From a virus (Duplodnaviria; Caudoviricetes), in IMG/VR virus record IMGVR_UViG_3300043436_004091, positions 1 to 52,953 of that record: a DNA stretch of 52,953 nucleotides; one strand, 5' to 3'. Positions 16,883-52,953 of this stretch are shown here, piece after piece. How positions within the stretch are numbered: the stretch's first letter is position 1; each line of letters opens with the position of its first letter. Under the pieces are notes generated by a model. The model saw only the letters and a list, made by a program, of their open reading frames with translations, did no database searches and was not told the DNA's origin. Position numbers and translations under genes: made by a program.

Positions 16883-19800
16883 ATGCCAGCGTCAGTTCAG
16901 ATACCAGTAACACAAACAGGTTTAGAAGCGAGCATCCAAGCGGCATTGAGAAATGCTGGGAAAGGCGCTCAAATTAATTTAGGAGCGAATGCTCGTCAAA
17001 TTAATGCGTTAGCTCAACCTCTTGGTCGTATCACTGGACAAGCTGACGAATTTACCAAATCGATGGAAGCGGCGAATGCTCGCGTATTTGCATTCGGAGC
17101 TTCTGTTGGTATTATCAATGGAGTTACAAGTGCATTTAGTTCTCTAGTTAAAAGTACTATCGCAGTCGAAAAATCTTTGACAGAAATTAATTCCGTTTTC
17201 CAAAAAAGTTCTTCTGAGTTGGAGAAATTTGGCAACTCTTTATTCGATGTAGCTAAAAACACAGGACAATCATTTGACGCTGTTGCAAAAGGCGCTCTCG
17301 AATTAGCTAGACAAGGTTTAAGCACAGAAGAATCTCTTAGAAGAATTAATGATGCTCTTATCTTGACTCGCCTATCTGGATTGGATGCAGAAAGATCAGT
17401 ATCTGGTTTAACTGCCGCAGTTAATGCTTTCAAAAGCACAGGTATTACAACATCTGAAGTTTTAAACAAACTGGTTGTTGTTTCTCAAAAGTACTCGGTT
17501 TCTGAAAAAGATTTAATTGAAGGTCTTAAGAGATCATCATCTGTTGCGAAGCAAGCTGGAGTTTCTTTTGACGAGTTGGTTGGTATCATCACAGCTGTTC
17601 AAGAAAAAACATCTGTTGGTGGAGCAGTTATTGGTAACTCATTCAAAACAATCTTCACAAGGTTGCAAAGAACAGACACTTTGGATGCTCTGCAACAACT
17701 TGGAGTTTCTGTAACAGATGTTCAAGGCAGAATATTGCCAGCTACAAAACTTCTCGAAAATTTAGCAGGTACAATCAAAAGTCTTAATCAAGTACAACTT
17801 GCAGAGATTACTGAAAAAGTTGGTGGTGGATTCCAAATCGATAAGTTATTAGCTACATTAGAAGATTTGAGTAGTCAATCATCAGTGGCTTTTAAAGCGA
17901 CTGAAATATCTTTAAAAAGTACAAATGAAGCTTATGAAAAGAACGCAGCATTGAACGTTACATTAGCTGCTTTGATCAATAAGACATCTTTAAGTGCGGA
18001 GCAGCTTGGAGCTACATTGGGTAAAATTGGAATCACTGACAGCGCTAAAAACTTGCTTGGATTCTTTAATGGACTTCTTGAAAGTATCCAAAAAATCCTC
18101 GGTGAAGAAAGTGCATTGGGAGATGTTTTTAGAGGTTTAGCTAAAGGCATTGGAAATCTTATCACAGGTCCAGGTTTAGCTTTGTTTGCAGGTATTATTT
18201 TAAAACTTTCAAAAGACCTTGCTCAGTTTGGTTTTGCGAGCTTAAAAGGATTCTTTGGAATTGGAAAAGCCGCTAAAGAAATTCAAAATGTCGAACAGTC
18301 TATTGCTTCGGCTCTTTCTAGAAATGTCGGACTTCAACAACAACTTTTCGCTTTAGAAGGTAACAGAGCGGCTCAGATTAAACTGATGTCTGATGCTATC
18401 GTATTGCAAGAAGCCGCGATGAGAAGAATGGCTTCTACAGCAAGCACTTTGGCGGCTCCTCTTTATGGAGCAGGCGTAAGAAGCACTGGAGAAGGATTAA
18501 GAGTGCCTAGAGCGGCGGGTGGATACACACCAGCGGTTTCTCAAGAATCGTCTGATATTAGAAAAGGTGTTGGTGGCGCTAAATCTGGAGATCGCCCAGT
18601 TGTTATTCCTAATTTTAATTTTGGTCAAGGCAAGAAAGGATCTATTGTAGCTCACACTGGAGAGTATACAGTTCCAAATTTTGCGGGCAGCGGTGGAACA
18701 GCTATCTTTAATAGAGACATGGTTCGCTCTATGGGCTTGCCATCTGGGGCTAAAAAGATTAGTGCATCTGGCGGATTGATTCCAAATTTTGCCGAAAAAG
18801 TAAAAATAGTAAAAAATCAAAATCAAATTCTAGAGGGTAAAAATTTTGAAAGTATTTTAAATAAAAGACTCTTTGGAAAAAGTTCTTATTCTCCTAATGA
18901 TCCTCTTGATTTTCCGCTTCCTCAAGGCTACGGCCTGAATGCGAGCGCTAAAAAACAGTTAGGTATTAATAACTTGTCTAGATATGGAGATGCTAAAAGA
19001 TCTTTCAGTAGACCTTCTTCTGTTAGTTTAATGGATAAATATTTAAGAACTAAAGAGGGTGAGCTAGATTTTCGGAATAAACGTATTAGCGAAAGAGGTT
19101 TTATTAATTTAAAACCAGATGGCTTGTCCATGCTTTACAAATATGGAGAAGCTGAAGGTGTGAAATCAATTAACGTTGGAACTAAAAATAGTTCTTTTTC
19201 AGTAAAAACAAAAAAACTAATTGAACAAAAATTAATAAAGACAAAAAATCCTAATTTAAGCAGAACTATTAGTATGCCATTGATTGCCGACAAGGTTAAT
19301 TTAGCTTCTGGTTTTATCCCAAACTTCTCTAATACTCTTTTAACTGACACTATTAGACAATATTATCCAGAATTAGAAAATTACAGAGTAAGTTCTAAGA
19401 AGTTTGTTTTTCCTAATGGCATAGAAGCTTATCAATCAAATATTGATAATGTTCTTAAAAGAAATCCATCTTTTGCTACAAAAAAGAAGGCTTTGGATCA
19501 GAAAAAACTTGACCAAGGATTTTTAGATTTCAATATCGATGCAAATACTTTAGGGGGAATTGCTTTGGTCACTCCGAAGCAAGGAGATGCTTCTGGATAT
19601 GTTTCGGCAAAACTAAAAGGTTCTGATCTTAAAGACAATAAGCCGAGAGGTCTTTTAGATGATGATCAAATTATTTTAAGTAATATTCAGCAAACTGGAG
19701 TTCCTACAAAAAAGAATTTCGAGCAAATATCATCTGAAATTAATAAGTTTTTTGCTGGGCCAATTGTAGCACTCGCTCAATCTTTATATGGGCGACTTTA

Positions 19801-22800
19801 CTCTGGAATGCAAGCAGGAGAATTTACAGATCAATTAGGAAATCTTAAATCCACATCAAAAGGAGGAATTCTTCCTGCGGGTGCAGAAGGTCAGCTTTTT
19901 GAAGCTGCTAGTAAAGCCGCATTGACCACAATGAAAGATCTTTCTGCTTCATTTGATCCTAAAAATGAAAACAGACCATTTGATTTTACTAACCCAGCTG
20001 CAATGAATCAAATGTTGGGAGTAAAAGCGGTGAGAGGTGATGCGAAAAGAGGAGGTGGGTCTGCGGCGAATTTTCAAGGTCAAGTTAATACTCTTGTCAA
20101 AAAGTCAATGAATGATGGAGATATCGCTCCAAAAATATTATCTCAAATAAGTCAACAATCAAAAGGCAGAAAATCTCCTAATGCTGCTGGTGGTTTTATT
20201 CCAAATTTTGCAAATCCTTTAAAAGATGCAGTTAATCGCGAAATGGCTGCTGGAGTTCCTGCTTCTCAAATCTATGTAGATAAAAACCCATCACTCAAGA
20301 GCGTAGGCAATCCAATGGGATTGATGGTTGCTAATCGTCGTGATGAGCCAGCAGGTGGTTATCAAGGTATCAATAGAGCTATCAAAGAAGGTAGAAATCC
20401 AAAGACTTATGGTGCGGCGAGTGGGTTTGTGCCAAATTATGTAGATGCGCCAGATATTTCTGGATATATAGGTCAAACAAGAAGCGCTGCTTTAGCGATG
20501 CAAGAGTCTGCGTATCAAGAAGCGTTAAAGAAAATTACTAAAGCATTAGATGCTGAAAGAGTAAATCTTAAAACATTAAGTTCATATCGACAAAAAGAAA
20601 GAAAAGTTATAGAAGATAAAATTCAAGCTTTACAACTTGAGACTATAACTCTTCAAAAATCTTCAGAGGCAACGAAAAAAGCAATTATAGAACAATCAAA
20701 AGGCGTTTTTGGAACTGGAAAAACTGCGACCCTTAAAGAGACTACCGTTCGAGCGAGTGGAGAACAGAAAGACATGCTAGGAACTATTTTTGCTTTACAA
20801 GGAGCGTTTAGTATATTGACTGGGTATACAGATAGTTTGTCTGGCGAAATTGGATCAGCGGTGAAAGCAGTTTCAAATGCGGCATCAGGTATTACTACCG
20901 CCGCCTTTGCTTATCAAGGATCACAAAGACTTCTAGCTGAATCCACGGGTGGAGTTGGTAAAGCTCTAGGCAAGGTAGGTATTGCTGGATCAGTATTACT
21001 GGGAGTTTTTGAAGTTTTCAAAGCTGGGAAAACTATCATGCTTGAAAATAATGGCTCGACTAAACAAGCGGCAGAAAATGCTAGATTACTAGCAGAGTCG
21101 GCGGAAAAAGCTGCGAATCGACTAGATGAACTAGATCCAAATGCTCAACAAAGAATTAAAGAAGATGCTAAATTTTTATTAAAAAGTTTGGAGGAGGGTA
21201 GATTTAATCGCCAAGGTGAATTTGGGGAAGAGACAAATTATAGAAAAATGTCTGTTTCCTCTTTTGTCGCAGATCAAGATTCTGCTAATTTTCAAAGTGC
21301 TATTGAAAATGCAAAAGCAGCTGGATTACCAGAAACATCCATAGCTTCAACTATATTCAAAGAAGGTGAAAAAAATAGAAATGTTTTAGGTGATTATGTA
21401 TTATACACAGATAACATAAAAGAGGTTATAAAGGAATTAGGAAAGTTATCTGAACAATCTCCTATTAAAAAATTAAAAGAAGATTTAGATAGTATAACTA
21501 ATTTAGAAAATATCAATGCAGATAATTTAATGCCAGTTATAGCTCCATATTATGAGCAAATAAAAAATGGCACATTGGATTTAGAAACACAAAGAAAAAT
21601 TCTGAATGATTCTTCATTAACCACAATGGATAGAGTTGTTGCAGAAAATCTACTGGTGCAAGCTATTAAAAAAGGAGCTGAAGCTTCAAAAATTTCCGCA
21701 GATGAAAATAAAAAAGCATTGGATCTAATCAATACTTCTTATGCTCAAAATCAATTAAAGAATACTATTGATATTTCAATTGCTCAACAAAGAACTACTA
21801 AAGAATTAGATCTGCAATTACTTTCTGCCAAGGAGCTTAATAATTTAAGCGAAAAAGACATAAGAAGTTTAGAAAATAAAATAACTTTACGAAATTTAGA
21901 TAGAAAATTAGTAGATGAAACATCTTCTCTTTTAAAAGGACAGATTGATAAAGCTAAATTGCTTGTAGCAAATAAAGAAAAAACAATTGAGCTAGAAGGA
22001 CGATTAAAAACTTTTTCAGAAGATGATTTCAAAAATAAAGATGAAGTTACTAAATTACTAGGAGAAATAAATATATTGTTGGGTACGGGAACTGATCTCA
22101 CAGAAGCTGAAAGAAAAGAGAATGAACAGATTTTAGATAATCTTCTAAAAAAATACGATTTAGATAAGGAAGATTTAAAAGTTCAACAACAAAAAACAGA
22201 AGAATACAAAACTCAAGCATCTACAATAAAAGATATAATCTCTTCAGCACAAAGAGCTTCTCAACAAAGATCTTTCGGTATAGACATGACTTCGAGAAGA
22301 TCTCAGTTCTCGAATACCAAACAAATAGCTGAACTACAAGCTTCAAAATTAGGTAGATCTCCTGATGAGATTAAAAGAATAGACGCTAACATTGCTGCAA
22401 TTGAAGCTAATACTGTATCTTTAGAAAATGTTGCAAATTATAATAAAATGCTCGCAGATAAAAGAACTGAGTTATTAGGTTTAACAAAATTTTCAGATGA
22501 ATACCAAGCTGACGAATTTAAAAAATTAGTAGAAAATGATAGTAATTCGCTCAAATCATTGATGGATAAAGCTGATAGAGCTTTAGGTTTAACGCAGAAT
22601 GAAAATGATAAGAAAGCTATTGAAGAATTTATTATAAAATTGAAACAGGAATCCGAAAGCCTTCAATTAGATGCTGAATCCTCTCAAGCAGCAGCAGATA
22701 CTCGCACAAGAGAGGCTGGCGCAATAGAGCCAGTAATATCAGCTTTGGAAATGTTTAGAAGATCTCTACTTGATTCTACAGATATCATTGATAGAAAAAT

Positions 22801-24505
22801 TCAAGATTTAGAACTAGAAAAATTAACTTCCATATCTGGAAGAAGAAACGCTGAAATTGATTATGAAATAGAAACTCTCAATCAGCAAAAAGGACAAAGC
22901 GCAGAAGAAGCCGCAAGAACAGCAAGAAAAAGACAGGCAAAAACAATTCCTCAGTTGTTTAAAGAAGAGTACAGCAAAACGATGGAAGAAAGAACATTAG
23001 AGTTCAACAAAACAATTGTTGATGCTTCTATTCAATTCAAAAATAATTTGATCGACGGTATTTCTAAAGCTATCGAAGAAGGTGGAACATTGGCAGACAT
23101 TCTCAAAGGTGGCGCTTTAGATTTTGTAAGAACATTAAACAAGCAATTAATGTCTAACATGTTTAATTCTCTTCTTGGCTCGAACAAGAATGGATCTTCT
23201 GGATTATTAGGATCAATCTTTGGTTATGCATCTGGTGGACCGATCACAGGTGGATCTGGAACCAAAGATGATGTTCCAGCAATGCTTATGGGCGGAGAAT
23301 ATGTTATCAACAAAAAGTCTGTTGGCAGATATGGACCTAAATTCTTAGAAGCAATCAACAATGGAACACTGGGTGGTTATGCTCAAGGAGGCAAAGTTCA
23401 AAGTGGAAAAGGAGGATTCTTCACTCCAGGAACTTATGGACTTGGTGGAATTCAAGGAACAGGCAACTTGCTTAAGTTCGCGACTCAAGGTTACACTTCT
23501 GGAGCTAGAGATCAAATCGTCAATCAAGGAAATTATGCTTCTATAAACTTAGAAGCAGAAAGCGCTAGATTAACAAATTTCGGAAGAAGCAATAGTCCTC
23601 AAGCTGAAGCTACTAGATCCGCCAAAGAGCAAGCCTTTGGTTTGTATGTCCAAGACATACAAGCGCAGCAAGAAGCTCAAAAACAAGCGGAAGCAGAAAG
23701 TGATGCGCTGAAGAAGCAACTCATGTTATCAGTAGTATTGGCTGCTGGATCTGGATTCTTTAAAGCTTATGCTGGATCGGGCACAACTGGAATGGCGCGA
23801 TTAAGCGATGCGGCGAAAGGAATTTGGAGTGGTTTTGAAGGCAAAGGAGGTTTAACAAACTTATTTAGTTTTGGCGGATCATCTTCAACGACACCATCAT
23901 CAAAAAATACAAATGGTGCAAATGGATATGATGTGAATCCATATGACAATGATCAAATAAATGAAGTAAATTCTGCCTTGGGAGGTTTAGGAGTTTCTCC
24001 ATTAAATTTTGGAGGATCTAATAATGGTGTTTATAACAATAACATACCAGCATTCACTACTGGTCCATTTGACGCGCAAGGAAATTATATAGAAGAACGC
24101 GCAAATGAAAGATTCGCCACTGGAGGTTCAATTCCTTTCAAGGGTGGAATCGATACAGTTCCAGCGATGCTTTCAGGCGGCGAATTCATCATGAATCGCT
24201 CTGCCGCTCAAAACATCGGCGCTGGAAATCTACAAGCACTCAATGCTGGCGCAGGAACCATCGTTACAGAGGAGAAGACGGAAGAGTTGAACGAGAAGCT
24301 TATATCCAAGCTGGACGAGCTTATCGAGGCTTCTGGAGGAGCTTCTAGCATCACGATCAATGTCGAAGGATCTACTGGAGCGGCAACACAAAGCACCAAC
24401 GGAAATCCAACCGATCAAAGACAACAAATGGCTCGACAAATCAAAGACGCTGTTCTCAAAATCCTTCAAGACGAAAAAAGATTGGGAGGTCAATTAAGAA
24501 GATAA
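16883..24505 (+). CDS. Tail tape measure protein with internal nuclease-like cassettes
   Basis: 2540 aa; TP901-type TMP core (ELARQGLS...LILTRLSGLD...GGAVIGNSFKTIFTRL); coiled coils; C-terminal VPAMLxGGE modules. Confidence 0.9.
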   Translation: MPASVQIPVTQTGLEASIQAALRNAGKGAQINLGANARQINALAQPLGRITGQADEFTKSMEAANARVFAFGASVGIINGVTSAFSSLVKSTIAVEKSLTEINSVFQKSSSELEKFGNSLFDVAKNTGQSFDAVAKGALELARQGLSTEESLRRINDALILTRLSGLDAERSVSGLTAAVNAFKSTGITTSEVLNKLVVVSQKYSVSEKDLIEGLKRSSSVAKQAGVSFDELVGIITAVQEKTSVGGAVIGNSFKTIFTRLQRTDTLDALQQLGVSVTDVQGRILPATKLLENLAGTIKSLNQVQLAEITEKVGGGFQIDKLLATLEDLSSQSSVAFKATEISLKSTNEAYEKNAALNVTLAALINKTSLSAEQLGATLGKIGITDSAKNLLGFFNGLLESIQKILGEESALGDVFRGLAKGIGNLITGPGLALFAGIILKLSKDLAQFGFASLKGFFGIGKAAKEIQNVEQSIASALSRNVGLQQQLFALEGNRAAQIKLMSDAIVLQEAAMRRMASTASTLAAPLYGAGVRSTGEGLRVPRAAGGYTPAVSQESSDIRKGVGGAKSGDRPVVIPNFNFGQGKKGSIVAHTGEYTVPNFAGSGGTAIFNRDMVRSMGLPSGAKKISASGGLIPNFAEKVKIVKNQNQILEGKNFESILNKRLFGKSSYSPNDPLDFPLPQGYGLNASAKKQLGINNLSRYGDAKRSFSRPSSVSLMDKYLRTKEGELDFRNKRISERGFINLKPDGLSMLYKYGEAEGVKSINVGTKNSSFSVKTKKLIEQKLIKTKNPNLSRTISMPLIADKVNLASGFIPNFSNTLLTDTIRQYYPELENYRVSSKKFVFPNGIEAYQSNIDNVLKRNPSFATKKKALDQKKLDQGFLDFNIDANTLGGIALVTPKQGDASGYVSAKLKGSDLKDNKPRGLLDDDQIILSNIQQTGVPTKKNFEQISSEINKFFAGPIVALAQSLYGRLYSGMQAGEFTDQLGNLKSTSKGGILPAGAEGQLFEAASKAALTTMKDLSASFDPKNENRPFDFTNPAAMNQMLGVKAVRGDAKRGGGSAANFQGQVNTLVKKSMNDGDIAPKILSQISQQSKGRKSPNAAGGFIPNFANPLKDAVNREMAAGVPASQIYVDKNPSLKSVGNPMGLMVANRRDEPAGGYQGINRAIKEGRNPKTYGAASGFVPNYVDAPDISGYIGQTRSAALAMQESAYQEALKKITKALDAERVNLKTLSSYRQKERKVIEDKIQALQLETITLQKSSEATKKAIIEQSKGVFGTGKTATLKETTVRASGEQKDMLGTIFALQGAFSILTGYTDSLSGEIGSAVKAVSNAASGITTAAFAYQGSQRLLAESTGGVGKALGKVGIAGSVLLGVFEVFKAGKTIMLENNGSTKQAAENARLLAESAEKAANRLDELDPNAQQRIKEDAKFLLKSLEEGRFNRQGEFGEETNYRKMSVSSFVADQDSANFQSAIENAKAAGLPETSIASTIFKEGEKNRNVLGDYVLYTDNIKEVIKELGKLSEQSPIKKLKEDLDSITNLENINADNLMPVIAPYYEQIKNGTLDLETQRKILNDSSLTTMDRVVAENLLVQAIKKGAEASKISADENKKALDLINTSYAQNQLKNTIDISIAQQRTTKELDLQLLSAKELNNLSEKDIRSLENKITLRNLDRKLVDETSSLLKGQIDKAKLLVANKEKTIELEGRLKTFSEDDFKNKDEVTKLLGEINILLGTGTDLTEAERKENEQILDNLLKKYDLDKEDLKVQQQKTEEYKTQASTIKDIISSAQRASQQRSFGIDMTSRRSQFSNTKQIAELQASKLGRSPDEIKRIDANIAAIEANTVSLENVANYNKMLADKRTELLGLTKFSDEYQADEFKKLVENDSNSLKSLMDKADRALGLTQNENDKKAIEEFIIKLKQESESLQLDAESSQAAADTRTREAGAIEPVISALEMFRRSLLDSTDIIDRKIQDLELEKLTSISGRRNAEIDYEIETLNQQKGQSAEEAARTARKRQAKTIPQLFKEEYSKTMEERTLEFNKTIVDASIQFKNNLIDGISKAIEEGGTLADILKGGALDFVRTLNKQLMSNMFNSLLGSNKNGSSGLLGSIFGYASGGPITGGSGTKDDVPAMLMGGEYVINKKSVGRYGPKFLEAINNGTLGGYAQGGKVQSGKGGFFTPGTYGLGGIQGTGNLLKFATQGYTSGARDQIVNQGNYASINLEAESARLTNFGRSNSPQAEATRSAKEQAFGLYVQDIQAQQEAQKQAEAESDALKKQLMLSVVLAAGSGFFKAYAGSGTTGMARLSDAAKGIWSGFEGKGGLTNLFSFGGSSSTTPSSKNTNGANGYDVNPYDNDQINEVNSALGGLGVSPLNFGGSNNGVYNNNIPAFTTGPFDAQGNYIEERANERFATGGSIPFKGGIDTVPAMLSGGEFIMNRSAAQNIGAGNLQALNAGAGTIVTEEKTEELNEKLISKLDELIEASGGASSITINVEGSTGAATQSTNGNPTDQRQQMARQIKDAVLKILQDEKRLGGQLRR
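18761..20440 (+). repeat. Dispersed protein-level repeat A(A/S)G(G)(F/L)(I/V)PN(F/Y) within TMP
   Basis: SASGGLIPNFA (18761), LASGFIPNFS (19301), NAAGGFIPNFA (20180), AASGFVPNY (20414). Confidence 0.85.
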
Positions 24506-36528: not shown

Positions 36529-37233
36529 ATGAGCTATAGAGTTTCTGTAATCACTTCAATCTATAAATCTTTTGAATTTTTGCATCATTTTCTTTTGGAT
36601 GCAAAAAGGCAGACTATTTTTCCTGAATCAGAAATTCTTCTGTTAGATTGTAATGATGATGATTTTGATTATAAAATAATCGAGCCATTTTTGTCTTTTT
36701 GTAATTTCAAGTACCATAAACTCGGGAAATGCTCAGTATATGAAGCATGGAATATTGGAATAGATTTATCATCTTCTGATATACTCACAAATTGGAATAC
36801 TGATGATCGCAGAGCTTTTGATTCATTAGAGAATCAAGTTTCTTTCATTGAAAAAAATCCAAAGTATGATTTGTGCTATGGTCCAACTTTAATCAGTGAA
36901 ATTCCAAATGAAGTATTTGAATTTTGTTCTTCCAAAATATATTATCCAGCTTTAGATGGTACTTTAGAAAATCAAATGGAGCATAATTCTCCTCACTGCT
37001 TGCCTGTTTGGAGAAAGAGTGTTCATGAAAGATTTGGATATTTTGATACTAAATATTTCTCTGCCTCCGATTATGATATGTGGTTTCGTATTTTAAAAGG
37101 AGGAGGTGAGTTTAAAGCGTTGGATAGTCTTGTTGGACTATATTATAGAAATCCAAATGGAATTTCCTCGTCTTCTAATAATATAAATAAAGCTTTGGAG
37201 GAAGTTTTGCAAATAAGAAATAAATATAAATGA
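36529..37233 (+). CDS. Glycosyltransferase family 2
   Basis: VSVITSIY, YEAWNIGI, WNTDD, DYDMWFR. Confidence 0.88.
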   Translation: MSYRVSVITSIYKSFEFLHHFLLDAKRQTIFPESEILLLDCNDDDFDYKIIEPFLSFCNFKYHKLGKCSVYEAWNIGIDLSSSDILTNWNTDDRRAFDSLENQVSFIEKNPKYDLCYGPTLISEIPNEVFEFCSSKIYYPALDGTLENQMEHNSPHCLPVWRKSVHERFGYFDTKYFSASDYDMWFRILKGGGEFKALDSLVGLYYRNPNGISSSSNNINKALEEVLQIRNKYK

Positions 37234-37868
37234 AAATTTTTACATTTTACAGTGACTCTCATAAGCATTTATTGGATCTTTTTTTGAAATCTTTTTTTAA
37301 AAATTGCAGTTTGGATTTAACTATTAAAAAAATAGATCAAAAATGTTCTGGAGACTACCATTCAAATGGATGGAAAGAAGCAATGGTTAGTAAAATACAA
37401 TATATTGTTTACAGTCTAAAGCAATGTGGCGAAGGAGAAATTATGATCCATTCTGATTGCGACATATTAATATGCAATAACATAGATAGCTACATTGAAG
37501 AGTCTTTATCGAATAAAGATATAGTATTCCAATGGGATTCATCTGGAGTTTGCATGGGATTTTTTGCGTGTGTAAAAAACGATTTAACAGTAAAGTTTTT
37601 TGATGAATTATTATTTAATCTTCATTTGCATAAAGACGATCAATATTGCGCAAATCACTTGCTATCAATAGATGAGTTTAAAAATCTTAAATGGGATTTA
37701 TTTGATCATAAATGTTTCACTGTTGGGATGTTGAATATTATGTATAATGAAGATATCGAAATTAGCATCCCAAAAGACTTAAATATTTTCCATGCTAACT
37801 TTTCTCCTAATTTAAATTTAAAAACTCAATTAATGCAAAAAGTATTTGACTTTTTAAATTATCAATAA
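37230..37868 (+). CDS. Nucleotide-diphospho-sugar transferase (GT77-like)
   Basis: HSDCD DxD motif, CMGFF, DDQ, FHANF. Confidence 0.75.
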   Translation: MKIFTFYSDSHKHLLDLFLKSFFKNCSLDLTIKKIDQKCSGDYHSNGWKEAMVSKIQYIVYSLKQCGEGEIMIHSDCDILICNNIDSYIEESLSNKDIVFQWDSSGVCMGFFACVKNDLTVKFFDELLFNLHLHKDDQYCANHLLSIDEFKNLKWDLFDHKCFTVGMLNIMYNEDIEISIPKDLNIFHANFSPNLNLKTQLMQKVFDFLNYQ

Positions 37869-37874
37869 TACTAT
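37846..37874 (+). promoter_or_regulatory. Sigma70-type promoter, leaderless geometry
   Basis: TTGACT-17 nt-TACTAT, 6 nt before ATG 37881. Confidence 0.6.
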
Positions 37875-37880
37875 AAAAAT

Positions 37881-38759
37881 ATGATTTATTCTTATTTCGA
37901 AGATATTTTTCCATATGATAAATTTCCTGTTGAATATTCTTGTTTTCAACAACTTAAAAATGAAGAAAATATCAACTACATCGCAATTCCTTGGACGCAG
38001 ATATTAAATTCTAATTGGTTAGATTTTCCAAATAAGAAGCCAATGCAATACTATATTAATGAAATTTCAAAATTGAATATAGAACAGGAAAATAATTTTA
38101 CTGTCTGTCAGCATGATGACTATATGATGCTCATCGATGTCTTTAAGCACTTGCGCATTAACACTGTATTCTCTCCATTGCATGATAAAAATAATATTGC
38201 TACTGATGGAATAAACATTATTCCTATAGCATTTACTTGCAGTTTTATTTTTGATAATTTAAGAAATAAAGATATACCTATTTCTTTTGTTGGCGCTTAT
38301 ACTTCTCATCCTATTAGATCAAGAATGTCTAATAGAATTAATAATAAAAATATAATCTATAGAGATAGCTATCATATAGATTCTAATTCATTTTCTGTCG
38401 AAAATTACAAACAAAAAGAAGAAAAAGAATATCAAGATATCTTAGAAAGAAGCAGGTTTTCTCTATGTCCAAGAGGATCATCTCCATCTTCTGTAAGATT
38501 TTGGGAAAGCTTATCTGCTGGCGCTATACCCATTTTAATTTCAGATAATTGGGTTCTTCCTGATTGGGATTGGGACAATACTATTCTTATTATATCAGAA
38601 GATGATTTTGAAAATTTATCATATAATGAATTAATTGATATTATTGATAAAATTCCCCAAGAAAAGGAAGCTGCAATGAGAGAGGGTTGTTTAAAAGCTT
38701 ATCAAGAATTTAACCAAAATAATTTCAAAAATTACATAGAGAAATCAATAAACAGATGA
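37881..38759 (+). CDS. Exostosin-family (GT47) glycosyltransferase
   Basis: SRFSLCPRGSSPSSVRFWESLSAGAIPILISD. Confidence 0.85.
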   Translation: MIYSYFEDIFPYDKFPVEYSCFQQLKNEENINYIAIPWTQILNSNWLDFPNKKPMQYYINEISKLNIEQENNFTVCQHDDYMMLIDVFKHLRINTVFSPLHDKNNIATDGINIIPIAFTCSFIFDNLRNKDIPISFVGAYTSHPIRSRMSNRINNKNIIYRDSYHIDSNSFSVENYKQKEEKEYQDILERSRFSLCPRGSSPSSVRFWESLSAGAIPILISDNWVLPDWDWDNTILIISEDDFENLSYNELIDIIDKIPQEKEAAMREGCLKAYQEFNQNNFKNYIEKSINR

Positions 38760-39319
38760 AAACAATTTTAGACATAGGGTGCAATGATTTAGCAGGATTT
38801 GATTTTTTAAAAAATTTTGAAACTATAAACGAAGAAGATATAAAAATTTTTGTAGAAGCAAACCCAGAATGTTGGCTAGATTTAGAAGAAGATATTCAAT
38901 CTATAAAAAATTCTTTTTTAATTAAAAAGGGTCTTGATGTAGAAGTAAAAGATGCAGTCCTAATGACAAGAGCTGATGAAAATAAATGTATTGGTGCTAC
39001 TGTAATGGGAGAAGATTTCATGAATGATAGCTTGGGAAGGTGGAATATAAAAGTTAATGAATTTAATTATTACAATATACGCACAACTACAATACTGGAT
39101 ATCATTGAAGAATTTAAAATAAATACGGAAGAATGTATTTTAAAACTTGATGCTGAAGGTGTCGAGTATGGCGTATTAAATCAAATATTAGATAATGATA
39201 TAAACTTTAAGAAAATATATTGCGAATTTCATGTTCATAATCAAAATCATGAGTTGTCAAAACTAGATCTAATCAAAAGATTTAAAAATAAAAATCAAGA
39301 AATTATAGAATGGCACTAA
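38756..39319 (+). CDS. FkbM-family methyltransferase
   Basis: ILDIGCN, VEANP, LKLDAEGVEY, CEFH. Confidence 0.8.
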   Translation: MKTILDIGCNDLAGFDFLKNFETINEEDIKIFVEANPECWLDLEEDIQSIKNSFLIKKGLDVEVKDAVLMTRADENKCIGATVMGEDFMNDSLGRWNIKVNEFNYYNIRTTTILDIIEEFKINTEECILKLDAEGVEYGVLNQILDNDINFKKIYCEFHVHNQNHELSKLDLIKRFKNKNQEIIEWH

Positions 39320-40170
39320 AAAAAATTTTTCTTAATTCTGGTAATTTAAAAACTTACGGACCAAATCAATCATTTGGCAATCATTTATCTCATTTATTAT
39401 TTTGCTATAATTTCAGCAAAAAAAGAGGTTATAAATTGGTGATTGCTACAGAATCCAATTTAGATGAAGTTTTTGAATTGGAAAAATTTAAATGTTCAAA
39501 TCAATTAGAATTAATTAATTATTTTTCAGAATCTTTTAGTTATAACATTTTCGAGGCTTGCAAACTTGATGAAAGTAATTTAAAAACAAGCTTAGAAATT
39601 CTTAATAACAAGAATTTGAAAATTCCAGAAAATATATGTTTTTCTGGATGGTTTTATAATACACCTTTGTATTGTAAAACTTTTTTTGAAAAAGTTAAAA
39701 TAAGAAAAAATATTTTGGATTTCATAAATTGTAATCTTAGTCATATCATGGATCATGATTCTATATCATTACACTATAGAGGTTCAGATTTTAATGGTCA
39801 TTTAGGATACGATTTAAGATTGCCATTTGAATATTATGAAAAGTGCATCAAACACTTAAGTAAAAATCATAAAAATATAAAAAATATTTTTGTATTTTCA
39901 GATGATTCAAACAAAGCAAAAGAGTTAATTTCCTTTATTAAGGAAATAGATAATTCATATAATATCGAATTTTTGCATAATGAATATTATATTGATTGGG
40001 CTTGTTTACATTTATCACATAATATAGTATCATCTAATTCTTCATTTTGCTTAACTGCTTGTTTAAATAAAAAAATTATTTATCAGCCAGAAAAATATCA
40101 ATTAAGAAACACCACAATTGATGCTGTGTATCCATCTCAACCATTTTTTGAAAATTCTTATATATTATGA
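39310..40170 (+). CDS. GT11-like alpha-1,2-fucosyltransferase
   Basis: FGNHL, SLHYRGSDF, VFSDD, SNSSF. Confidence 0.75.
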   Translation: MALKKIFLNSGNLKTYGPNQSFGNHLSHLLFCYNFSKKRGYKLVIATESNLDEVFELEKFKCSNQLELINYFSESFSYNIFEACKLDESNLKTSLEILNNKNLKIPENICFSGWFYNTPLYCKTFFEKVKIRKNILDFINCNLSHIMDHDSISLHYRGSDFNGHLGYDLRLPFEYYEKCIKHLSKNHKNIKNIFVFSDDSNKAKELISFIKEIDNSYNIEFLHNEYYIDWACLHLSHNIVSSNSSFCLTACLNKKIIYQPEKYQLRNTTIDAVYPSQPFFENSYIL

Positions 40171-40847
40171 TAAATATAAATTATCAAGGAAGATTTGGAA
40201 ATAATCTTTTTCAGTATTTTACTGCATTAATATTATCTCAAAAATTCAATCAATCAATTAAAAATCCATTACTAAATAATATTTTTGAATTTCATTTCAG
40301 CGAAAATAAATATATTTATGAAGAGAGCTTAATAGTAAATGACGATAATATTTATAATTTACTTAATGAAGAAAACATAAATAATAATTTAATTTTAGAT
40401 GGATTTTTTCAAAATAGGAAAATACTAGAATTCCTAAAAGAAAACAAGCATTCATTTTTAAATGAAAATAAAAATCGAAAAGATACATTTGTGCATGTCA
40501 GACTTGGCGATATCTCTAATGATCAAGCAAGCTGTAATATAAATTATTATCGTAAAGCTTTAATAGGTTTAAACGGTGGATACATATCAAGCGATTCTCC
40601 TGATAGTGATATCGTAATACAGCTTATTAAGGAATTTAATTTAAAACTTTTTGAAAATTCTCCAGAAGAAACTATAATATTTGGATCTCAATTTGAAAAC
40701 AAAATATTATCATTGGGAACATTTAGCTGGTGGATTGGATTTTTGGGAAATCAAAACAATGTAATCTGCCCAGTTCAAAAAGAATATAGAGAATGGCATG
40801 GAGATATATTTCCATTCTTGAATTGGAGAGAAATATCAATAAATTAA
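40167..40847 (+). CDS. GT11-like alpha-1,2-fucosyltransferase
   Basis: GRFGNNLFQY, GFFQ, VHVRLGD, GTFSWW. Confidence 0.82.
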   Translation: MININYQGRFGNNLFQYFTALILSQKFNQSIKNPLLNNIFEFHFSENKYIYEESLIVNDDNIYNLLNEENINNNLILDGFFQNRKILEFLKENKHSFLNENKNRKDTFVHVRLGDISNDQASCNINYYRKALIGLNGGYISSDSPDSDIVIQLIKEFNLKLFENSPEETIIFGSQFENKILSLGTFSWWIGFLGNQNNVICPVQKEYREWHGDIFPFLNWREISIN

Positions 40848-40857
40848 AAAACATACT

Positions 40858-41487
40858 ATGTTCATATCGTTGAAGTATCTAAAAGAAAAATACAATTTAA
40901 ATTTAACAAATATTCTGCATGTCGGCGCTCATGAAGCTCAAGAATTAGATGATTATATTGAATGTGGAGCTAAGAAGATTCATTGGGTAGAGGCTAATAC
41001 AGAATTAGCTGCTAAACTAACTGATCGTTTAGATAAATCTATTCATAAAGTCACTAATGCCGTAGTATCTAACGAGGACAATAAAGAAGTTGTATTTAAA
41101 ATAGCCAATAATACTCAATCTTCATCTATTTTAGATTTAGGCGAACATTCAAATTTATTTCCAGATATTTATTATATTCATGAGGAAAAAAGATTAACTA
41201 AAACACTAAATTCTATCTTGACTGAAGAGCCATTTTTAGATAGAATTAATTTTTTAAATATAGATATTCAAGGTGCCGAATTATTAGCTCTAGAAGGTCT
41301 TTATAATCATTTAAATTTTATTGAATCTATTTATATAGAAATTAATGATTCTGAAGTTTATAAAAACTGTTCAAAAACAAATGAAATTGATAAATTTTTA
41401 AATAAATTTAATTTCGAAAGGAAAGAAAAATATCTATATTCAAATCATCCTTGGGGAGATGCATTTTACATAAAAAAATATGAATGA
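40858..41487 (+). CDS. FkbM-family methyltransferase
   Basis: ILHVGAH, VEAN, NIDIQGAELLALEG, WGDAFY. Confidence 0.88.
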   Translation: MFISLKYLKEKYNLNLTNILHVGAHEAQELDDYIECGAKKIHWVEANTELAAKLTDRLDKSIHKVTNAVVSNEDNKEVVFKIANNTQSSSILDLGEHSNLFPDIYYIHEEKRLTKTLNSILTEEPFLDRINFLNIDIQGAELLALEGLYNHLNFIESIYIEINDSEVYKNCSKTNEIDKFLNKFNFERKEKYLYSNHPWGDAFYIKKYE

Positions 41488-42151
41488 TTATTATAATATA
41501 TCTAAATTAAATAGATTAAAATTTAAATTTAAAAATTGCGAGCTTATTGAAAAAAATTACTCTCAGGCATATCAAGATATGTTTGTTTTGAGTATGTTAG
41601 ATGGCAAAAAAAATGGTTATTTTATTGAAATAGGAACTTTTCATCCTATTGAAATTAGCAATACGTTTTTATTAGAAAAAGAATTTGGTTGGAATGGATT
41701 ATCTATAGATATTAATAATATTAATGGATTTGAATCTCAAAGAAAATCTAAATTAGTTGTTCAAAATGCTTTGGAAATAGATTATGAAGAATTATTTGAA
41801 GAAAATAATATTCCAATTGATATAGATTATCTTCAAATAGATATTGAACCAGCCAATAACACATTATCCTGCCTTAAAAAAATACCGTTTGATAAATATA
41901 ATTTTTCTGTTATAACATATGAAACAGACTATCATAATTCTTCCGTGGAAATTAGAAACGAATCGCGTGAGTTTTTAAAATCTAATGGTTATGAACTCAT
42001 CGGAGGAGATATATGTAATGCGTATATACATCTTCCATTTGAAGATTGGTATGTAAAAAAAGATAAAATTGATGAAAAAATATTTAATACTTTTTTAAAT
42101 CCAGAATTTAACAATACGGCTGAAAAATTTATATTAAAAAATAATGAATAA
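41480..42151 (+). CDS. FkbM/Methyltransf_21-family methyltransferase
   Basis: YSQAYQD, FIEIG, SNTFLLE..GWNGLSID, IDYLQIDIE, EDWY. Confidence 0.85.
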   Translation: MNDYYNISKLNRLKFKFKNCELIEKNYSQAYQDMFVLSMLDGKKNGYFIEIGTFHPIEISNTFLLEKEFGWNGLSIDINNINGFESQRKSKLVVQNALEIDYEELFEENNIPIDIDYLQIDIEPANNTLSCLKKIPFDKYNFSVITYETDYHNSSVEIRNESREFLKSNGYELIGGDICNAYIHLPFEDWYVKKDKIDEKIFNTFLNPEFNNTAEKFILKNNE

Positions 42152-43334
42152 TCTTAAAGAAAAATACACAGGTAAAAAAATAGATCACATGGACATTTTA
42201 AATATCGAAGACGCAGCTAAGATCTCTATCGGCAAGAAGTCGATTATTGTAACTGGAGTAACAGGTCAAGATGGAAGTCACATGGTTGATTATTTATTAG
42301 CCAATACGGACTATGAAATTTTCGGATGCGTGCGAAGACTCAGCGTCTATAACCACAAGAATATTTCTCATATCAACAATAAAAGATTTCATTTAATTAA
42401 TTTTGACTTGATTGACAGTCATTCAATCGCTCGCATCATTGAAAAAATCAAACCAGATTATTTCATTAATTTGGCTGCGCAAAGCTTTGTCGGAAGCAGT
42501 TGGGATTTCGCTCATCAAACATGGGAAACAAACTCAACATCAACGCTTCATATTTTAGAAGCTATTCGTTTATATCACCCAATCTGTAGGTTTTATCAAG
42601 CTGGCTCCTCAGAAGAGTTTGGTGACGTTGCTTACGCTCCACAAGACGAGAATCACCCTCTTCGTCCAAGAAGTCCATATGGAGCTTCCAAGGCGGCTTC
42701 TAGACAGCTTGTAAAGGTATGGCGAGAGTCTTATGGACTTTATGCTGTGCAAGGTTGGTTGTTTAATCACGAAGGAACAAGACGCGGCGAAGAATTTGTT
42801 ACTAGAAAAATTACCAAAAACATCGCTAGAATAAAAAATGCAATCGACAGGCAAGAATCCTTTGCTCCTCTCGAATTAGGAAATTTAGATGCACTGAGAG
42901 ATTGGAGCGATGCAGAAGATTTCGTGGATGGAATTTGGAAAATGTTGAATCAGGAAAAGTATTGGCCTAGTGCTATTTCTAGCATTATCCCTCTTGGACA
43001 AGAGTATAGGGAAATTAAAGAATACGTTTTATCTTCTAATGAAACCCATTCTATTCGTGAATTTGTTGAATTAGCATTTGAAGCCGCTGGAATACAAGGA
43101 TCTTGGTTTGGTGAAGGTTTACAAGAAGAGTTCCGCCAAAATGAAACTGGCAGAGTTCTTTTGGTGATTAATTCCAAGTTTTATCGACCAGCAGAAGTCG
43201 AGCTTCTTCTCGGGGATTCTTCAAAAGCTAGACAAGAGCTTAACTGGAGTCCAAAAAGCTCATTCGAAGATCTAGTGCAAAAAATGCTTGCAAATGATTT
43301 GAATGAGTATAGACTTGAGCATGGCGAAGTCTAA
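42144..43334 (+). CDS. gmd: GDP-mannose 4,6-dehydratase
   Basis: GVTGQDG, YQAGSSEEFG, SPYGASK, LFNHEG.RRG.EFVTRKI, RPAEVELLLGD. Confidence 0.95.
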   Translation: MNNLKEKYTGKKIDHMDILNIEDAAKISIGKKSIIVTGVTGQDGSHMVDYLLANTDYEIFGCVRRLSVYNHKNISHINNKRFHLINFDLIDSHSIARIIEKIKPDYFINLAAQSFVGSSWDFAHQTWETNSTSTLHILEAIRLYHPICRFYQAGSSEEFGDVAYAPQDENHPLRPRSPYGASKAASRQLVKVWRESYGLYAVQGWLFNHEGTRRGEEFVTRKITKNIARIKNAIDRQESFAPLELGNLDALRDWSDAEDFVDGIWKMLNQEKYWPSAISSIIPLGQEYREIKEYVLSSNETHSIREFVELAFEAAGIQGSWFGEGLQEEFRQNETGRVLLVINSKFYRPAEVELLLGDSSKARQELNWSPKSSFEDLVQKMLANDLNEYRLEHGEV

Positions 43335-46728: not shown

Positions 46729-47773
46729 TCCATCTCAAATCCAATCCACGCTAGAGAACATTGGTTACTCTTTAGTTGATTTCGGAAATCACTGGAGAAC
46801 CAATGCTATATATCGAGGAGGAGACAATAAAATGTCTGTTCGTATTTATAAGAATACAGGCGTATGGACAGACTTTGTAAATAATGGAAAAGCTTTCCCA
46901 TTCGAAAAACTTTTGCAACTTACAGTTGGTGGTGATTCTAAAAAACTAAAAGAAATAACATCCTCTCTGAATAAGAGCGATGAATTCGTATACACTCAAA
47001 AACAAACTATTGAAATGGAAGAAATTTATCCAAAAGAAATTCTACAGAAGCTATTCCCAAATTACAATTTTTACACTAAAAAAGGTATCTCAGAAGATAC
47101 TCTGAAATTCTTTAAAACTGGATTGGCTGGTGCTGGAAAAATGTATCGCAGAATGGTATTTCCCATCTTTAATGAACATGAACAAATTATTGGATTTAGT
47201 GGTCGCAAAATTGACGAGGGTAATGATCAATCTCCTAAGTGGAAGCATTTGGGCAAGCGAAAGAATTGGGTGTATCCAGCTTATCTACCCAATGAGTCCT
47301 CTGTTGATTCAGTGATCAAGCAAAAGCAGGAAGTCATTCTAGTCGAGAGTATTGGCGACAGCATGGCTTTATTTGATTCTGGCATTAAGAATAGTTTAGT
47401 TACGTTTGGCATTGGATGTAGCTCATCTATTATCAGTTATCTAAATTCTGCACCTATCAAGAAAATCACAATTGCCACAAACAATGATTTCAGATCATCT
47501 GCGAATCATGGTTACAATGGAGCTATCAAGATTCTAATGGCTCTGCGTCTTTACTTTGATTTCGATTGCATCGAAATTAAAATGCCTCCCGATGGATACA
47601 ATGACTTATTTGAAGCGCATCAAGCTGGACATAATCTAGAAAGCTGGTATAATAAGGAAGTCGATAAAAAGGAGTATTTGGAAAGTTTACATTCATACGT
47701 TAAGAAATATATGAACTTGTTCAAACAAAAAGATGCTGCATCCCTGATCAAGTTAATTGAAAATTATGAGTAG
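46697..47773 (+). CDS. dnaG: DnaG-like primase with divergent TOPRIM and no zinc ligands
   Basis: RMVFPI...IIGFSGR...PKWKH, ILVESIGD, IATNND, NDL; follows the helicase. Confidence 0.8.
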   Translation: MTTTQSQTSVDPSQIQSTLENIGYSLVDFGNHWRTNAIYRGGDNKMSVRIYKNTGVWTDFVNNGKAFPFEKLLQLTVGGDSKKLKEITSSLNKSDEFVYTQKQTIEMEEIYPKEILQKLFPNYNFYTKKGISEDTLKFFKTGLAGAGKMYRRMVFPIFNEHEQIIGFSGRKIDEGNDQSPKWKHLGKRKNWVYPAYLPNESSVDSVIKQKQEVILVESIGDSMALFDSGIKNSLVTFGIGCSSSIISYLNSAPIKKITIATNNDFRSSANHGYNGAIKILMALRLYFDFDCIEIKMPPDGYNDLFEAHQAGHNLESWYNKEVDKKEYLESLHSYVKKYMNLFKQKDAASLIKLIENYE

Positions 47774-48857
47774 TCCAAAAACACCTCTGTCCGCTAGTAG
47801 AATCAAAACTGCGCAATCTTGCAGCTGGTTGTATTGGTGCAAATATGTTCTTCAGTTGCCAGATGCATCCAATGATGGAGCTAAAAGAGGTAGTATATGC
47901 CACTTAGTTTTCGAGTTGTTGGGCGAGCCTCGTAGAAAGAATACATATCAGAAAATCATCGAAGAAGAAGATATCTTCGCCGTTGAATCTGTGAAACGGT
48001 TGGTTCTAAAACATGCAAAGAAATCTGGCGTCGATGATGAAGAGAATATTGAGATGATCAAGGAAATGACTCTGAATGGTTTGGAGTATGATTTCTACGG
48101 AGAAAACTCCGATACCCCGACAGAAGCTATTTCGGAAAAAGACTTTGAGATTGTTCACGTTTCTGAATCAGAAGGAATCAAATATAAGATCAAGGGATTC
48201 ATCGATAAGTTGTTTTTGTACAAGAATAACAAGTCAGCTTTGATTCGAGACTTTAAAAGCAGCAAGCAAGTATTCAAGGGTAAAGAGATTTCTGATAATC
48301 TGCAAGATTATATGTATAGTTTGGCAGTTAAGCATTTGTATCCTGAATACGTCAATCGTCAAAGTGAGTTCTTGTTTCTCAAGTTTAATCTTGATGATAA
48401 AAAAGCAGCTAAGCTCAGATTCGGTCCAAATAGTCTAGTTGAGAAAAAGAAAGAAAAAGGTTCTGGCGTAGTATTGATGGAGCCTATTTCAGAAGATGAT
48501 CTTTCGGGTTTTGAGTATCAATTAACTGGGATGCAAACTTATCTAGATAATTTTTCCGAAAAAGATTCCCGTGGAAATCTTGCAGCTAAGCAACCGTTTC
48601 CCTCTGATAATTCATTCAGCGGACCATTGCAGTGTGGCTTTGCAAAAACAAAAGGTCAGCTTAAAAAAGACGGAACTCCCATGTGGCATTGTTTTGCGAA
48701 GTTTCCGTTTGATTATTTTGTGGTTCTCAACAAAGAGGGAAAGATATTAAAGTCTTATAATGAAGCCGACTTCGATCCATCTATTGTTGAAGAAAATCAA
48801 ACTTTTGAAAAGCGTCATTATCTTGGATGTCCAGCGTTCAATAGGCAAAATTATTGA
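47766..48857 (+). CDS. Cas4/RecB/AddB-like PD-(D/E)XK exonuclease
   Basis: LSASRI...C, GSICH, GFIDKL, RDFKSS, QDYMY, three C-terminal Cys. Confidence 0.82.
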   Translation: MSSPKTPLSASRIKTAQSCSWLYWCKYVLQLPDASNDGAKRGSICHLVFELLGEPRRKNTYQKIIEEEDIFAVESVKRLVLKHAKKSGVDDEENIEMIKEMTLNGLEYDFYGENSDTPTEAISEKDFEIVHVSESEGIKYKIKGFIDKLFLYKNNKSALIRDFKSSKQVFKGKEISDNLQDYMYSLAVKHLYPEYVNRQSEFLFLKFNLDDKKAAKLRFGPNSLVEKKKEKGSGVVLMEPISEDDLSGFEYQLTGMQTYLDNFSEKDSRGNLAAKQPFPSDNSFSGPLQCGFAKTKGQLKKDGTPMWHCFAKFPFDYFVVLNKEGKILKSYNEADFDPSIVEENQTFEKRHYLGCPAFNRQNY

Positions 48858-52850: not shown

Positions 52851-52953
52851 ATGGACATCGAAAAAATCAATCTAACAGCCAGCGCATCTAAATCTATTAG
52901 TGGGTTGGAGTCTTTTGCTAAACAAAAGGGTCATAATATAATCAATCCAATTC
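52851..52953 (+). CDS. Partial ORF, possibly Clp ATPase N-terminal domain
   Basis: MDIEKINLTASASKSISGLESFAKQKGHNIINPI resembles the ClpN pattern T..A...L..A...A....H..I; truncated by window edge. Confidence 0.4.
   Translation, partial: MDIEKINLTASASKSISGLESFAKQKGHNIINPI

Follow-up and report, generated by a model that had tools for sequence, protein, structure and literature searches.

A linker-delimited, hypervariable module array with a conserved nuclease-like core in the tape measure protein of an uncultured phage

The IMG/VR virus record IMGVR_UViG_3300043436_004091 (Duplodnaviria; Caudoviricetes), analysed here from position 1 to position 52,953 (hereafter the window, 52,953 nucleotides in all), encoded a giant tape measure protein (TMP) as a single open reading frame (ORF) of 2540 amino acids, in whose N-terminal half lay two cassettes sharing a nuclease-like set of motifs. 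The protein was assigned to the TP901/PhageMin_Tail type of tape measure by its Pfam PhageMin_Tail domain (residues 124-314, E 1.3e-32), its very long helical nature and its position among tail genes: the two genes 3' of it matched minor tail protein families and the large terminase was encoded upstream. Ten of its 11 PHROG matches were to tape measure families, and its relatives carried the label 'TP901 family phage tail tape measure protein' in their source annotations. The best matches in cultured phages, large Bacillus and Lactococcus phages, were about 25% identical over TMP residues 33-484, and a tblastn search of the cassette region against INPHARED phages gave no match.

A preliminary description of this DNA had drawn attention to positions 18794-20179, corresponding to residues 638-1099 of the ORF, as two PD-(D/E)XK nuclease-like cassettes embedded in the TMP that might be delivered with the virion. 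All six motifs that it listed were found exactly where it placed them: EGKNFE (651-656), DPLD (673-676) and YGDAKR (701-706) in cassette 1, and EGQLFE (1002-1007), RPFD (1031-1034) and RGDAKR (1051-1056) in cassette 2. The cassettes were set off by a short peptide that we call the linker. The motif [IVL]PN[FY] occurred six times in the TMP, always within residues 575-1186 and mostly in the context A-x-G-G-[FY]-[IV]-P-N-F-A; cassette 1 was the exact stretch between copies 3 and 4, cassette 2 lay between copies 4 and 5, and a further, smaller module, A, lay between copies 5 and 6. The features of the locus were as follows.

16883..24505, forward strand: TMP gene, one ORF, with the PhageMin_Tail domain, PHROG TMP matches and minor tail genes next to it
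18560..18790 (about residues 560-636), forward strand: opening 'bookend', the end of the 636 N-terminal residues that were 82-98% identical in close relatives, with the first three linker-type motifs, VVIPNF (575), TVPNF (597) and GGLIPNF (633)
18791..19315 (residues 637-811), forward strand: cassette 1, module family C, bounded by the linkers at 633 and 812
18827..19057 (residues 649-725), forward strand: core copy 1, with E656, D676 and D703-A-K705 (core hidden Markov model (HMM), E 3.6e-21)
19316..19327 (residues 812-815), forward strand: linker IPNF, in the context ASGFIPNFS
19328..20197 (residues 816-1105), forward strand: cassette 2, module family B, the commonest variable module
19880..20119 (residues 1000-1079), forward strand: core copy 2, with E1007, D1034, D1053-A-K1055 and K1074 (core HMM, E 1.9e-29)
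20198..20209 (residues 1106-1109), forward strand: linker IPNF, in the context AAGGFIPNFA
20210..20428 (residues 1110-1182), forward strand: module A, the closing 'bookend', 73 residues
20429..20440 (residues 1183-1186), forward strand: last linker-type motif, VPNY

Comparison of relatives showed that the two cassettes belong to a hypervariable array, resembling 'beads on a string', in the N-terminal half of this siphophage-type TMP; conserved bookends flank the array on both sides, and its modules are swapped among proteins that are otherwise almost the same. With residues 638-1110 as query, an exhaustive HMMER search returned 31 proteins, of which 25 were 1783-3583 amino acids long, five were short pieces in which the linker was present, and one (P0025) was an unrelated repeat protein that was left out. 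When the remaining 30 proteins were cut at the linker (consensus at module ends GG[FY][IV]PN[FY]), they yielded 123 modules of at least 40 amino acids in 37 BLAST families. Of the 28 relatives that had modules, 27 had module A as the last one, and it was 84-96% identical across close relatives. Family B accounted for 27 of the 123 modules, family C had seven members among the 30 relatives plus one more found among proteins of 666-2000 residues (P0033), and most other families were rare. Three relatives (P0002-P0004) illustrate the exchange: they matched the window TMP at 82-89% identity over the first 636 residues, 60-81% in module B and 84-88% in module A, with the first slot occupied by modules unrelated to cassette 1. 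The preliminary description had proposed aligning homologues to see whether these slots hold different domains in related phages, and they do.

A second search, with the N-terminal 520 residues as its sole query, was hence blind to the cassettes. It recovered 2687 large relatives at E <=1e-10, all of them metagenomic. Among the best 120 of these 2687, the seven closest matched the window TMP at 94-98% identity over its initial 636 residues and at 88-96% over module A, with arrays of 264-966 residues built from different module sets. Over a larger set of 138 proteins there were 515 modules in 61 strict families, including 141 copies of module A and 73 of family B; arrays ranged from one to eight modules, and relatives had 4 to 11 linker motifs each (median 6). 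Pfam searches of the arrays of 16 full proteins (E <=0.01) recognised no domain and no peptidase. We hold this architecture, together with the homology of the core described below, with very high confidence, and the linker-delimited, fast-shuffling array in a large uncultured TMP family is the most solid new result of this analysis.

The contigs that encoded the relatives' TMPs reached 100-325 kb and were binned with Bacteroidota, Pseudomonadota or Nitrospinales, pointing to large uncultured phages; a scan of genome contigs yielded a single locus, on a contig belonging to a metagenome-assembled genome assigned to Nitrospinales. One module of a relative (P0028, about residues 1600-1800, following its C-type module) contained the series LYRG ... 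STS ... EKE, which by eye recalls ADP-ribosyltransferases of the R-S-E type, and neither Pfam (E <=0.01) nor a PDB profile search supported that resemblance.

The linker itself was under constraint as a peptide. Its P, N and F at residues 1106-1109 were invariant in alignment A2, which comprised 22 sequences of cassette 2, while its codons varied synonymously between copies and between phages, indicating that selection acts on the peptide; a role as a recombination site at the DNA level, which we had considered, was ruled out by the same variation. In structure models of both modules the ends holding the linker were predicted with a local distance difference test score (pLDDT) below 50 (residues 174-181 of the module C model; about 49 for the linker at 1106-1109). 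Its probable role is as a site of recognition or processing through which modules are freed or positioned. A related-looking sequence occurred near the C-terminus of the TMP, where the motif GG-x-I-x-G/K-G-x-(K)-D-x-VPAML-x-GGE[YF]-[VI]-[IM]-N was present twice (about 23200-23420 and 24080-24200, TMP residues ~2106-2178 and 2400-2440); it starts with A-x-GG-x-I, similar to the array linker, and phrog_13338, of unknown function, matched 2106-2178.

The two cassettes had been described as otherwise dissimilar, and their direct pairwise alignment was indeed not significant (score 54, against a mean of 36.8, a standard deviation of 5.7 and a maximum of 56 in 200 shuffles), nor did it pair the motifs. 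Compared as profiles, families C and B aligned with their motifs in register across a stretch of 67 columns (hhalign 90%, E 1.7e-6), and BLAST single linkage placed both cassettes in one family in the larger sample. The two share a homologous core some 80 residues long, in which a helix (G-x-x-F-E) is followed by h-D-F, by a short helix, by a strand ([GY]-[DE]-x-K) and by a last helix that bears another lysine. A core HMM iterated over the modules detected it in 39 modules of eight families. In 38 distinct core segments the glutamate, the first aspartate and the lysine were each present in all 38, the next acidic position (1053 in cassette 2) was always D or E (24 and 14 segments, respectively), and the later lysine was present in 36, although the motif-based HMM that picked these segments biases the counts towards segments bearing the motif. 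In alignment A2, built without reference to the motif and spanning 22-79% identity, E1007, D1034, K1055 and K1074 were also invariant, so that the residues whose conservation in homologues the preliminary description had set as a test (E1007, D1034 and K1055) were kept throughout.

Among the 120 relatives chosen by their N-terminus, the core was found in 92 by the first HMM and in 116 after two more rounds, once in 110 of them and twice in six. The four core-negative relatives carried module families f11 or f28, and elsewhere six of nine f11 modules had the core. Such a distribution marks the core as a near-obligatory part of the protein and not an optional toxin, and two copies, as in the window TMP, are unusual in its family. 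In module C the strands of the sheet followed the core and in module B they preceded it, for which reason a circular permutation linking the two cassettes was suspected; it was rejected, the second hhalign alignment reaching only E 0.5.

Composition was less informative. Cassette 1 was rich in lysine as described (13.2%, versus 8.2% in the whole TMP), and the GC spot checks of the preliminary description were exact (10/60 at 19201-19260 and 25/60 at 18661-18720). Its AT-richness was not special, however: stretches of the TMP gene at 21300-22600 had a GC fraction of 0.26-0.31, and since AT-richness is common to later parts of the gene it is by itself no mark of foreign origin.

What the core does is less certain. 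We favour its being a catalytic domain derived from the PD-(D/E)XK superfamily, to which we assign a probability of roughly 40%; its identity as a nuclease is plausible but unproven. The ordered signature of that superfamily, a glutamate on the first helix followed by an aspartate and (D/E)-x-K, was present in both cassettes. As in members such as Mrr_cat, UPF0102/YraN, NucS and McrC, the x was a small hydrophobic residue and D and E interchanged at the position where PD-(D/E)XK enzymes allow it. Independent AlphaFold (AF2) models of cassette 1 (pLDDT 73.6, predicted template modelling score (pTM) 0.71) and cassette 2 (22 sequences, pLDDT 83, pTM 0.66) predicted the same order of elements, namely a long helix with the glutamate, a loop with the aspartate, a short helix, a strand with (D/E)xK and a helix, so that the placement of the glutamate (helix) and of (D/E)xK (strand, then helix) would again agree with the superfamily. 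The weak fold matches of cassette 1 were enriched for restriction-type nucleases, and most of its weak structural neighbours were of this fold, including further matches that we take to share it (AF1548, the N-terminus of Avs3, the XisH-like 2okf, VC1899, the centre of ERCC1 and the Cas4 protein SSO0001). As restriction enzymes made up none of the 50 weak matches listed for cassette 2, the enrichment for cassette 1 is not a habit of the tool. In the best local alignments to Mrr_cat, none of them significant, the FE and the lysine of xK were in register in three of three cases, as was the aspartate for cassette 2 and the core.

Other results weigh against this assignment. The model of cassette 1 was built on only nine sequences, and cassette 2, despite its more confident model, had no nuclease neighbour among those 50 matches. 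In the models the first aspartate lay in a loop (cassette 2) or in a stretch of pLDDT <50 (cassette 1) and not at the start of a strand. Between it and (D/E)xK the core had 19-27 residues containing a helix, where the superfamily has a short hairpin; no beta1-beta2 pair was predicted, and the sheet of cassette 2 was made of strands preceding the core. Foldseek, a check that the preliminary description had asked for, returned no significant match for the cassette models in PDB or BFVD (best E 0.13, 0.61 and 0.8), nor did pdb_via, the best ESM Atlas value was 0.87 for cassette 2 (unnamed viral clusters) with nothing for cassette 1, and sequence and profile searches of PDB with the cassettes gave no match. 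Pfam matches to the cassettes at E up to 10 were at chance level. Comparison by hhalign of the profiles of families C, B and f2 and of the core with Mrr_cat and UPF0102, two of many PD-(D/E)XK families, both represented by profiles built from genome searches, gave probabilities of <=1.6%, with no significant match to either; the positive control, Mrr_cat against UPF0102, scored 84% (E 7.9e-6), so the test was able to detect such relations. For a further family, PF10117 (McrBC), the 101 genomes sampled contained no match from which to build a profile. Ordinary members of the superfamily are likewise detectable in this phage, as a PD-(D/E)XK nuclease (PDDEXK_1, E 4.9e-15) was recognised at 47757-48857, between the primase and DNA polymerase III alpha. 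Among proteins of 149-851 residues no free-standing relative of cassette 2 was found, only a TMP fragment, and a tail tube should have no room for folded globular domains. Of the PD-(D/E)XK-like character originally proposed, the invariant residues and the D/E interchange are supported; no significant match to any nuclease family was found by sequence, profile or fold.

Chance resemblance of short motifs in a long, low-complexity protein, which the non-significant direct alignment of the cassettes might favour, is refuted by the profile-profile match and by the invariance of the motif residues in all homologues, and is further contradicted by the BLAST linkage that joins both cassettes in the larger sample. 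More serious is the possibility, doubtful in our view, that the core serves structure or assembly and not catalysis. Its invariant charged residues would then make up a salt-bridge or metal cluster by which the module refolds after ejection, holds the DNA end or docks to the tail tube or to chaperones, with the linkers as docking peptides. A core that is nearly universal and mostly single-copy (116 of 120 relatives, 110 once) fits a built-in part, no enzyme family was detected in any sequence or fold search, and a conserved peptide within low-confidence stretches of the models resembles short docking motifs. Yet invariant E, D, D/E and K residues across otherwise unalignable families are more typical of catalysis or ligand binding, the D/E swap at a single position mirrors the nuclease motif, and it is nucleases specifically that cassette 1 has as weak structural neighbours.

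TMPs are known carriers of wall-degrading domains, and the core might instead act against the cell envelope, for example as a phosphodiester or glycosidic hydrolase of wall polymers or lipids that aids the crossing of the TMP. Relatives in the same family do carry lysozyme, GH19, SLT, VanY or NlpC/P60 domains, and the window TMP has no muralytic domain recognisable by Pfam, so that the cassettes might supply the function. We nevertheless consider this improbable: the muralytic domains of relatives lie in another region (1632-2170), four of the five proteins checked have the core as well, which argues that the core is no substitute for them, and no lysozyme-like or peptidase fold was matched, though many are in PDB. 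Less probable still is a system of the polymorphic-toxin kind, in which alternative nuclease toxins would be injected against competitors or the host, each with an immunity function. Modules are swapped between near-identical proteins, the motif is nuclease-like, and virion-delivered multi-domain effectors exist, as described for polyvalent proteins (PMC5512222) and for TMP-related effectors of injection systems (PMC13277306). But the core-bearing module is nearly always present, mostly once, and so behaves as a fixed part, with variety residing mainly in core-less modules; the stretch that varies lies inside the protein, unlike a C-terminal toxin tip. As the preliminary description had noted, no adjacent immunity gene is evident; the genes after the TMP encode tail proteins, though small immunity genes may lie elsewhere. 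A toxin-immunity framing is accordingly unlikely, and the polymorphic-toxin arrangement that the preliminary description had suggested fits poorly; its reading as a whole is partly supported.

On the reading that we favour, the core would form the catalytic centre of a putative metal-dependent phosphodiesterase, most likely a very divergent restriction-endonuclease-like nuclease or a DNA-end-handling domain, carried within the tail as part of the TMP. In siphophage tails the C-terminal end of the TMP is located at the tip and is the first to be ejected; the N-terminal part, adjacent to the DNA, follows last. The array would thus be expected to exit the tail just before the DNA and to reach the cytoplasmic side, with the linker probably serving to free or position its modules. 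The wall-degrading domains of relatives lay well beyond the array: VanY at 1632-1714, NlpC/P60 at 1677-1757, GH19 at 1841-1896, lysozyme at 2024-2148 and SLT at 2082-2170. It would make a coherent layout for wall enzymes to occupy the half that goes first and a DNA-type enzyme the half that follows. These domains, found in P0048, P0059, P0092, P0130 and P0133 (with the core-bearing module in P0130, P0133, P0048 and P0059) and absent from the window TMP, also reveal a second variable site in the C-terminal half of the TMP family.

A bolder proposal, which we advance as a long shot, is that the TMP is a programmable polyprotein whose GG[FY][IV]PN|F linkers are proteolytic or autoproteolytic release sites, the array separating inside the cell after ejection. 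Self-cleavage between Asn and Phe is known from the maturation of tetravirus capsids. Under such a scheme the E-D-(D/E)xK module would either be injected as a nuclease against resident DNA or carry out the processing of the array, and the 50-odd other unrecognised module families would constitute a large pool of injected phage effectors.

Several known systems offer parallels. TMPs with embedded wall hydrolases, such as T5 pb2 and that of mycobacteriophage TM4, likewise have an enzymatic domain inside a TMP that leaves the tail at infection, and relatives of the window TMP have such domains; the cassettes differ in lying in another region, with fixed linker boundaries, in an array of one to eight modules and with no match to a muralytic family. 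Polymorphic toxin systems share the swapping of modules on a constant carrier, but here the nuclease-like core is the constant part of the array, the variable region is internal and tail genes come next. The polyvalent proteins of phages and conjugative elements are described as bearing 2-15 recognisable conflict-related domains, often alongside a metallopeptidase for processing; they are proposed to enter with the DNA and to be cleaved into their parts once deployed (Iyer et al. 2017, PMC5512222). The TMP array has the same multi-module build, and with it many unrelated domains in one polypeptide for which co-delivery with DNA and separation can be proposed. The recognisable processing peptidases reported for polyvalent proteins had no counterpart found by Pfam in the array, and the domains here sit in a tail-length ruler and are joined by one repeated linker; the term 'tape measure' does not appear in that text (PMC5512222). 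Effectors of the Sle1 type, from the contractile injection systems of actinobacteria (Streptomyces), are TMP-related and have exchangeable functional domains (PMC13277306). They resemble the present case in having a tape-measure-like carrier with exchangeable domains, ejected from a tail-like machine; they belong to a bacterial system and have a single C-terminal functional domain. As analogies, polyvalent proteins and TMP-related injection effectors are closer than polymorphic toxins.

The rest of the window was that of a lytic-type phage genome, which also encoded a ribonucleotide reductase, a deoxynucleoside monophosphate (dNMP) kinase, a RecA-like protein, a DnaB helicase, a primase, the PDDEXK_1 nuclease and a DNA polymerase III alpha. 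A protein at 217-903 matched Sigma70 region 2 with E 1.8e-5, just over the cut-off, suggesting a phage-encoded sigma factor. Directly upstream of the large terminase, 1942-2880 encoded a C2H2 zinc finger (below the cut-off) together with an ERCC4 nuclease domain (E 7.5e-7). A sugar-modification gene cluster at 36529-43334 comprised glycosyltransferases (GT2, GT47-like and GT11), two FkbM methyltransferases and a GDP-mannose 4,6-dehydratase, and could serve the modification of DNA or of host surface sugars.

That a few proteins are injected by phages along with the DNA is established. A rapidly shuffled, linker-delimited array of unknown domains in a TMP is a different layout, as is the near-universal nuclease-like signature within it, and our literature search, which left supplements outside its scope, found no description of a nuclease domain or of a linker-delimited module array in a TMP. 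The observation that two motif-sharing cassettes lie inside the TMP is confirmed and is stronger than first noted. Given 2687 metagenomic relatives and a best cultured match of about 25% identity, such arrays may be widespread among large aquatic siphophages, and the linker provides a simple rule for finding modules. Should the core prove to be a nuclease, this would be a first case of such an enzyme built into the tail ruler, and if the modules act inside the host, the arrays would be a new source of early-acting phage effectors.

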